NCBI GenBank assembly: GCA_964480295.1
Contig: CAYZOZ010000003.1
Location: 152 to 64,151, forward strand
DNA from: an uncultured Phascolarctobacterium sp.
GTDB taxonomy: Bacteria; Bacillota; Negativicutes; Acidaminococcales; Acidaminococcaceae
DNA length: 64,000 bases
Direction of reading: 5' to 3'
Shown here: one piece after another, positions 49,978 to 50,005 of the stretch
Layout: every line of letters begins with the position of its first letter
Numbering within the stretch: the first letter of the stretch is position 1
Position numbers and translations under genes: made by a program
Notes under the pieces: model-generated
Database searches by the model: none
What the model was told of the DNA's origin: nothing
The model's input: only the letters and a program-made list of their open reading frames with translations

Positions 49978-50005
49978 TTGACGGGGGGGGACATGGTGAT
50001 ATACT
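49978..50005 (+). promoter_or_regulatory. Polysaccharide-locus promoter with G8 tract
   Basis: TTGACG-N16-TATACT with TG extension; G run at 49983-49990. Confidence 0.7.

Follow-up and report, generated by a model that had tools for sequence, protein, structure and literature searches.

Does a homopolymeric G tract, placed between the -35 and -10 elements of a promoter, tune the expression of a whole surface polysaccharide operon? This question is raised by positions 49978-50005 of the window, the 64-kb stretch of DNA from an uncultured Phascolarctobacterium sp. that was analysed here. A sequence-only reading had placed a promoter with a G8 run in its spacer at this site, and had proposed that slipped-strand changes in the run make the downstream operon phase variable. 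The organism is present at low depth in freshwater metagenomes.

Anatomy of the promoter and its G tract

The proposed layout of TTGACG, a 16-nt spacer and TATACT was confirmed in the sequence, on the + strand. The -35 hexamer TTGACG (49978-49983), found by a consensus scan, is present in every variant seen. Its last base and the following seven spacer nucleotides form the G8 homopolymer (49983-49990), which is the putative slippage-prone tract. The spacer (49984-49999) consists of G7 and ACATGGTGA, and is followed by the -10 hexamer TATACT (50000-50005), which is replaced by TATAAT in some related copies (types D and F, described below). In addition, the TG of an extended -10 is located at 49997-49998, a feature absent from the earlier description. 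This was the sole sigma-70-like site within 49000-51000, with a score of 10/12, and the consensus scan found no other intergenic site of equal score on the + strand. Transcription would start near 50012, and the conserved start of the leader (50006-50025) ends at a cassette junction, 50025/50026, which was located by blastn of the sister-population contig L084. Another promoter-like site, CTGAAG/15 nt/TATATT (50004-50030), was rejected for its poor score, its 15-nt spacer and the scarcely existing leader before the ribosome binding site (RBS). A search of 49700-50300 against Rfam gave no match at E values up to 1.

The G8 tract is the single G/C run of at least 7 nt in the 64 kb, in agreement with the earlier remark that no comparable intergenic G run was noticed. 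G/C runs of 4, 5, 6, 7 and 8 nt occur 131, 17, 3, 0 and 1 times in the window, respectively. The expected number of runs of at least 8 nt per window is about 3.4 from base composition and 0.08 from an order-3 Markov model. Because the genome avoids G/C runs, the G8 tract is an outlier with respect to the genome's own run spectrum, not to composition alone. The tract is a homopolymer between the -35 and -10 of a recognisable promoter, as in the porA/opc class. The cut-off for a hypermutable tract was taken from Campylobacter, for which phase variation is accepted from G/C tracts of 7-8 nt upwards (PMC6321876); the G8 of the window and the G9 of L084 are both within it. G8 is at the low end of the range for fast slippage, and with an active mismatch repair system its length may prove marginal.

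The upstream LPS gene cluster and the terminator

The promoter is located at the end of a conserved Negativicute LPS/outer-membrane gene cluster of the diderm-Firmicute type. The first part of the cluster encodes TamB, LpxI, LpxB, an MsbA-like ABC protein and a WaaA-LpxK fusion; the middle part encodes KdsB, KdsA, KdsD, KdsC and an LpxL-like lipid A acyltransferase; and the last part encodes LptC, LptA, LptB, LptFG, a DUF3084 protein, a 138-aa ORF and a 210-aa FchA-like protein. The fusion is a single 848-aa ORF (37756-40302), in which the Kdo transferase WaaA (N-terminal) is joined to the lipid A 4'-kinase LpxK (C-terminal). The fchA-like cyclodeaminase/cyclohydrolase gene (49264-49896, + strand; Pfam FTCD_C and NCBIfam FchA) closes the cluster. 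Its homologues are likewise 210 aa long, and the nearest ones outside the species are from Phascolarctobacterium (74% identity), which places the organism among Acidaminococcaceae-like Negativicutes.

A terminator directly before the promoter had also been proposed, and a credible, although AU-rich, intrinsic terminator is indeed predicted there. The terminator-like element (49943-49975, + strand) is composed of a perfect 32-nt palindrome (49943-49974), with two 16-nt arms that are 100% complementary, and a T5 tract (49971-49975). Its RNA fold of -23.3 kcal/mol is far more stable than those of shuffled sequences (-7.8 +/- 2.4 kcal/mol; z = -6.6), so that a stable hairpin is followed by a U tract as in Rho-independent terminators. 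An A4 on the 5' side gives the element a bidirectional look. The 3' ends of three Logan contigs (L081, L082 and L083) all fall inside the palindrome, at window positions 49967-49972. Because a palindrome of 32 nt exceeds k = 31, these breaks are a property of the assembly, not a sign of tract heterogeneity, and they were set aside as evidence for the latter.

The downstream polysaccharide operon

Downstream of the promoter, nine genes are arranged on the + strand with intergenic gaps of at most 92 nt, spanning 11.7 kb. An RBS, AAGGGGG (50040-50046), precedes manC (50054-51436; mannose-1-phosphate guanylyltransferase/mannose-6-phosphate isomerase; TIGR01479, 517 bits, and Pfam matches), whose record P0001 gives a 460-aa product starting at 50054. 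It is followed by a GT4 glycosyltransferase gene (51446-52561, from a domain match) and a gene for a 206-aa protein (52654-53274) with weak matches to the coiled-coil families Mod_r and SMC-like only, for which chain-length control is suggested only as a guess. The next gene encodes a 1214-aa glycosyltransferase with two GT4 modules (53271-56915; two Glycos_transf_1 stretches), a candidate for the polymerising enzyme. The gene for GDP-mannose 4,6-dehydratase, gmd (TIGR01472, 504 bits), extends over 56855-57964 as a maximal ORF, and its true start is probably later than 56855. The following short-chain dehydrogenase/reductase gene (57989-58912) is rmd-like; its matches to GDP_Man_Dehyd and Epimerase are below the equivalog cut-offs, and the product is probably a GDP-4-keto-6-deoxymannose reductase. 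Another GT4 gene (58930-60078, from a domain match), wzm for an ABC-2 polysaccharide export permease (60113-60892; ABC2_membrane, with a weak Wzm/RfbD match below the curated cut-off) and wzt for the transporter ATPase (60902-61708; ABC_tran) complete the operon. The proposal that the promoter serves manC and the genes after it holds as a prediction: no other credible promoter precedes these nine genes.

The presence of Wzm and Wzt together with nucleotide-sugar genes and glycosyltransferases is characteristic of ABC-transporter-dependent O-polysaccharide clusters, and no Wzx/Wzy-like ORF was found in 50054-61708. From this gene content, the cluster is predicted to make an ABC-transporter-type mannose/6-deoxyhexose surface polysaccharide. 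The genes under the promoter (manC, gmd, the rmd-like gene, the GT4 genes and wzm/wzt, after the LPS cluster) thus encode a surface-exposed structure. The polysaccharide is most likely an LPS O-chain, as its position beside the lpx, kds and lpt genes suggests. The earlier term "O-antigen" is therefore likely from the LPS context, although no ligase was seen in the cluster.

The nearest ManC is 70% identical, and exact-protein look-ups of ManC with a start at either 50054 or 50048 found no second contig. GTDB genomes were scanned for manC (80 loci); those G/C runs that preceded manC were within coding sequence and unrelated. A search of RNA runs found no run containing the operon. The GC content is 38-47% over 53000-62000 and 55-60% in the flanking LPS genes; the low GC agrees with an origin of the cluster's distal part by horizontal transfer. 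Beyond wzt, a unit of about 1.41 kb is present as a tandem duplicate (61890-64000). The unit encodes an Rpn/PD-(D/E)XK "transposase"-family protein on the minus strand (62059-63162), and contains 50-52 nt hairpin segments that are 100% identical and internal 36-nt repeats; its second copy runs past the window end.

The same promoter precedes different glycan cassettes

Contigs of a sister population were found via the FchA cluster at 90% identity. One of them, the 124-kb JGI contig L084, is 98.0% identical to 43354-50025 of the window in blastn, and the homology then ends. The break at 50025/50026 (L084 position 6673) is sharp and lies inside the leader, 20 nt past the -10. L084 therefore shares the terminator, the promoter and 20 nt of leader with the window; a different, small glycan cassette (DUF4422 and others) then follows, with groES and groEL, at the junction where the window carries its 11.7-kb manC to wzt cassette. 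Matches from sequencing runs were low-depth Logan contigs of populations about 95-97% identical. Among them, a window-like promoter is combined with the DUF4422 cassette in the low-depth freshwater contigs X4, X17 and X18. Since the same promoter precedes different cassettes across contigs, it is part of the conserved flank and serves interchangeable cassettes, and 50025/50026 is a cassette-exchange junction in the leader. The terminator, the promoter and the first 20 nt of the leader together make up a conserved "expression site" before strain-specific glycan cassettes. Such a site with swappable cassettes is a landmark for typing the glycan diversity of the clade.

Length of the tract in close and distant relatives

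Tract lengths were read from assembled contigs. L084 has TTGAC-G9-CATAGTGA-TATACT with a 16-nt spacer, and three other contigs (L085, L087 and L103) have TTGAC-G8-CATAGTGA-TATACT with a 15-nt spacer. About 5 SNPs in 11 kb (99.9% identity) separate L084 from the one haplotype that L085 and L087 represent, and the tract is the only indel between the two. The G8 form from three samples belongs to the same haplotype. All window-type copies seen carry G8 with a 16-nt spacer and no indel. In X18, an A inserted after TTGAC produces TTGACA and a 17-nt spacer, and X6 has an interrupted run, TTGACG-CGGCAGGG-ACATGGTGA-TATACT, also with a 17-nt spacer. Three spacer states were thus found: 15 nt in L085, L087 and L103; 16 nt in the window, L084 and types C, D and F; and 17 nt in X18 and X6. 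The length changes move the spacing across the optimum of 17 +/- 1 nt.

These results indicate that the tract is not invariant, because near-identical contigs carry either G9 or G8. The length differs between closely related strains, by one event only. Of the phase-variable tract that had been proposed, the variation in length therefore stands (G8 versus G9), as one event that separates two haplotypes and not as a mixture of lengths inside one population. The G8/G9 difference is one mutation that travels with SNPs, and it gives no evidence of rapid switching.

Not all related promoters retain the G run, some having G3 or G6. A G6 copy is present in X1; together with the interrupted run in the related promoter of X6, it shows that the promoter itself can do without the run. 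In genomes at the Phascolarctobacterium level (L088 and L113-L136), the fchA gene is followed by CTTGACG/17 nt/TATAAT and then by tRNA-Ser(UGA), often joined by tRNA-Ser(GCU) and sometimes by a phage-type integrase island. An FchA-based metagenome scan recovered only relatives at this level, all with tRNA-Ser downstream. No G run was found in the tRNA-Ser promoter of these distant relatives, and no tRNA in the window or L084 at the position after fchA. As the distant relatives are without the run, the G-rich spacer is derived in the lineage where this position drives glycan cassettes. The motif TTTTGCTTGACG is common to the window and L113. Orthology of the -35 element with the relatives' tRNA-Ser promoter is suggestive only, because MAFFT placed that promoter in a different register.

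Proposed mechanism and an ordinary promoter as its main rival

The mechanism proposed here is as follows. TTGACG/16 nt/TGaTATACT would be a promoter of the housekeeping-sigma (sigma-70/SigA) type that restarts transcription after the terminator of the fchA-like gene, and would drive the 11.7-kb operon of manC, GT4, the coiled-coil protein, the double-GT4 enzyme, gmd, the rmd-like gene, GT4, wzm and wzt. The 5' half of its spacer is a G8-G9 homopolymer, whose length could be shifted by one base through replication slippage, so that the distance between the -35 and -10 would move among 15, 16 and 17 nt. Transcription of the operon would then go stepwise up or down, with 17 nt predicted to be best and 15 nt poor from the cases of porA, opc and fetA. 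The TG of the extended -10 should weaken the dependence on the -35 and the spacing. Because it would partly offset poor spacing, a rheostat is favoured over an on/off switch. The earlier suggestion of a rheostat set by spacer length is thus borne out in that 15-, 16- and 17-nt states exist, although the extended -10 should dampen the effect. The mechanism is a classical one, spacer-tract slippage, and the window promoter is probably tuned in that way; the whole reading, a functional SigA-type promoter with a slippage-tuned G8-G9 spacer as the rheostat of the operon, has in our judgement an even chance of being correct. A switching rate, reversibility and any adaptive value, such as the evasion of phages or predators, are putative.

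An ordinary constitutive promoter is a real, though lesser, possibility. The G run would then be incidental and lineage-specific, and its occasional gains or losses of a base would be rare, approximately neutral or mildly harmful, and non-regulatory. The single indel event against about 5 SNPs in 11 kb and the stable linkage of the G8 allele to its haplotype in three samples are as expected from such a promoter, and so are the extended -10, the related promoters that work with G3 or G6 spacers and the normal 17-nt promoter, without a G run, of the distant relatives. On the other hand, this genome strongly avoids G/C runs, with no 7-nt run and just one of 8 nt, and that run lies exactly within the spacer of a promoter heading a hypervariable surface-glycan locus. 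Moreover, the one indel found among about 7 kb is in the 9-nt tract, and the exact G8 core is common to copies with unrelated flanks, as in X10 (40 nt, 0 mismatches). If the output is independent of tract length, this is simply the promoter of the operon.

Recurrence of the hairpin/-35/G8 core

In metagenome contigs, a segment composed of the right arm of the hairpin, T5, GC, TTGACG, G7 and ACA recurs with unrelated sequence on either side as compared with the window. The recurrence was seen over window positions 49945-49993 in runs X3, X10, X14, X15, X16 and X20. Type C copies continue as ACA-CAAGAG-TATACT-ATAAAGG (X10, X15, X16 and X20), and the one in X10 corresponds to 49954-49993. An RNA contig of X15 spans a related copy, without end information. 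Type D copies continue as ACATGGTGA-TATAAT-AATTAC (X3, X14 and X20), and type F as ACA-GAGCTG-TATAAT (X14); types D and F have 2-3 unplaced mismatches, so that the intactness of G8 is not proven there. Single samples hold several core types, and the copies may be paralogues in one genome or copies in sister taxa. A real promoter is well supported, because the copies keep the hexamers and the 16-nt spacing while the 3' sequence of the spacer changes.

The hairpin/-35/G8 core could itself be a portable, multi-copy expression site whose hypermutable promoter heads several surface-structure cassettes within one genome or species and which serves as a homology anchor for swapping them; we consider this rather unlikely. 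If this portable-module reading is true, a diderm Firmicute would possess a phasome that is based on promoters and linked to the exchange of cassettes. Distinctly unlikely, too, is the view that hairpin, T5, TTGACG, G7 and ACA are a dispersed repeat, either a portable terminator-promoter module or a recombination anchor, in which the G run is retained not for slippage but with the repeat, e.g., as a site for a protein or for recombination. The recurrence of the core in types C, D and F with unrelated sequence on both sides, several types per sample, agrees with such a repeat, as do the cassette junctions at 49993 or 50025, inside or just past the promoter, and the tandem Rpn-like PD-(D/E)XK genes at the far end of the cassette. 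However, the 64-kb window holds one copy only, pattern scans for the module gave 0 matches in JGI metagenomes and 0 in viral contigs, and no recombinase adjoins the module. A dispersed repeat is, besides, compatible with slippage tuning.

It is highly improbable that the G8/G9 difference arose as an error of sequencing or assembly at a homopolymer beside a strong hairpin. In favour of an artefact, breaks at or close to the hairpin and tract occur in three of the six JGI contigs and in all Logan contigs, and L103 contains obvious errors at its contig end. However, independent assemblies of three samples yielded G8, the G8 allele co-segregates with two SNPs that separate its haplotype from the G9 haplotype, and the Logan breaks are accounted for by the palindrome.

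Comparison with known contingency loci

Tuning of the operon by the G8-G9 spacer, the preferred reading, has its closest parallel in Neisseria meningitidis, in which spacer homopolymers control porA (poly-G) and opc and fetA (poly-C), and slippage by one base moves the spacing around the 17-nt value, with graded expression (PMC2791445). As in porA, opc and fetA, the -35 and -10 of a sigma-70 promoter are separated by a G/C homopolymer and the target is a surface antigen; 15-, 16- and 17-nt spacer states were seen here. Unlike the Neisseria tracts, G8-9 is shorter and abuts the -35, and it is accompanied by the TG of an extended -10. The target also differs, since it is a 9-gene polysaccharide operon and not a single outer-membrane protein gene, and the host is an environmental diderm Firmicute, in which switching and its effects on expression are putative. 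At the level of sequence features, the window promoter belongs with the Neisseria spacer tracts in position, length, polymorphism between strains, spacing around 17 nt and surface target.

The poly-G phasome of Campylobacter jejuni is similar in that a G tract of at least 7-8 nt in a surface-glycan locus is a contingency site there (PMC6321876). The C. jejuni tracts are, however, mostly within ORFs, act by on/off frameshifts and are many per genome, whereas one intergenic tract is present in the 64 kb here, putatively acting on transcription. In Helicobacter pylori, the poly-T of sabA is a promoter "rheostat", in which a promoter-proximal homopolymer grades the output and does not give a clean on/off switch. 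The sabA tract precedes or adjoins the -35 and works via DNA geometry, unlike the tract described here, which is inside the spacer.

The gene content of the operon resembles the common polysaccharide antigen (D-rhamnan) cluster of Pseudomonas aeruginosa, which is composed of rmd, gmd, wbpW, wbpX/Y/Z, wzm and wzt. The shared elements are manC (as wbpW), gmd, an rmd-like reductase, GT4 enzymes and a Wzm/Wzt exporter. The sequence relatives here are, on the other hand, from Negativicutes or the environment (closest ManC, 70%) and the sugar product is predicted; the 1214-aa double-GT4 enzyme and the protein with weak coiled-coil-family matches go beyond the P. aeruginosa cluster. To our knowledge, that cluster has no SSR promoter. 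The capsular polysaccharide loci of Bacteroides fragilis have invertible promoters, and site-specific DNA inversion places whole operons under stochastic control. Control of a whole polysaccharide operon at the promoter and alternative glycan loci are common to both systems, with stochastic control being putative here; homopolymer slippage is proposed instead of inversion, and no inverted repeats flank the promoter.

No report of SSR phase variation in Negativicutes was found in the literature. If the tract tunes the promoter, this would be the first indication found that, in this group of diderm Firmicutes, SSRs make the transcription of an entire O-polysaccharide operon phase variable. Free-living freshwater or gut anaerobes would then share the contingency logic of mucosal pathogens, presumably against phages or grazers.

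Repeat variation in a Phascolarctobacterium acyltransferase gene

In gut Phascolarctobacterium-type contigs (L104-L109), an Acyl_transf_3 gene (approximately 1417-2485 in L104-L108) is located just upstream of an identical DUF4422 gene. L105 and L108 carry the Acyl_transf_3 gene in intact form (355 aa), and in the other contigs it is split. Over 1.1 kb, the only indels are in a poly-T (T6, T7 or T8, of which T7 is intact) and in an (AT)5/(AT)6 repeat. Such a pattern looks like SSR-mediated frameshift switching, with an O-acyltransferase of a polysaccharide locus as its target. SSR-driven glycan variation thus appears to occur in the family, as these acyltransferase repeats suggest.
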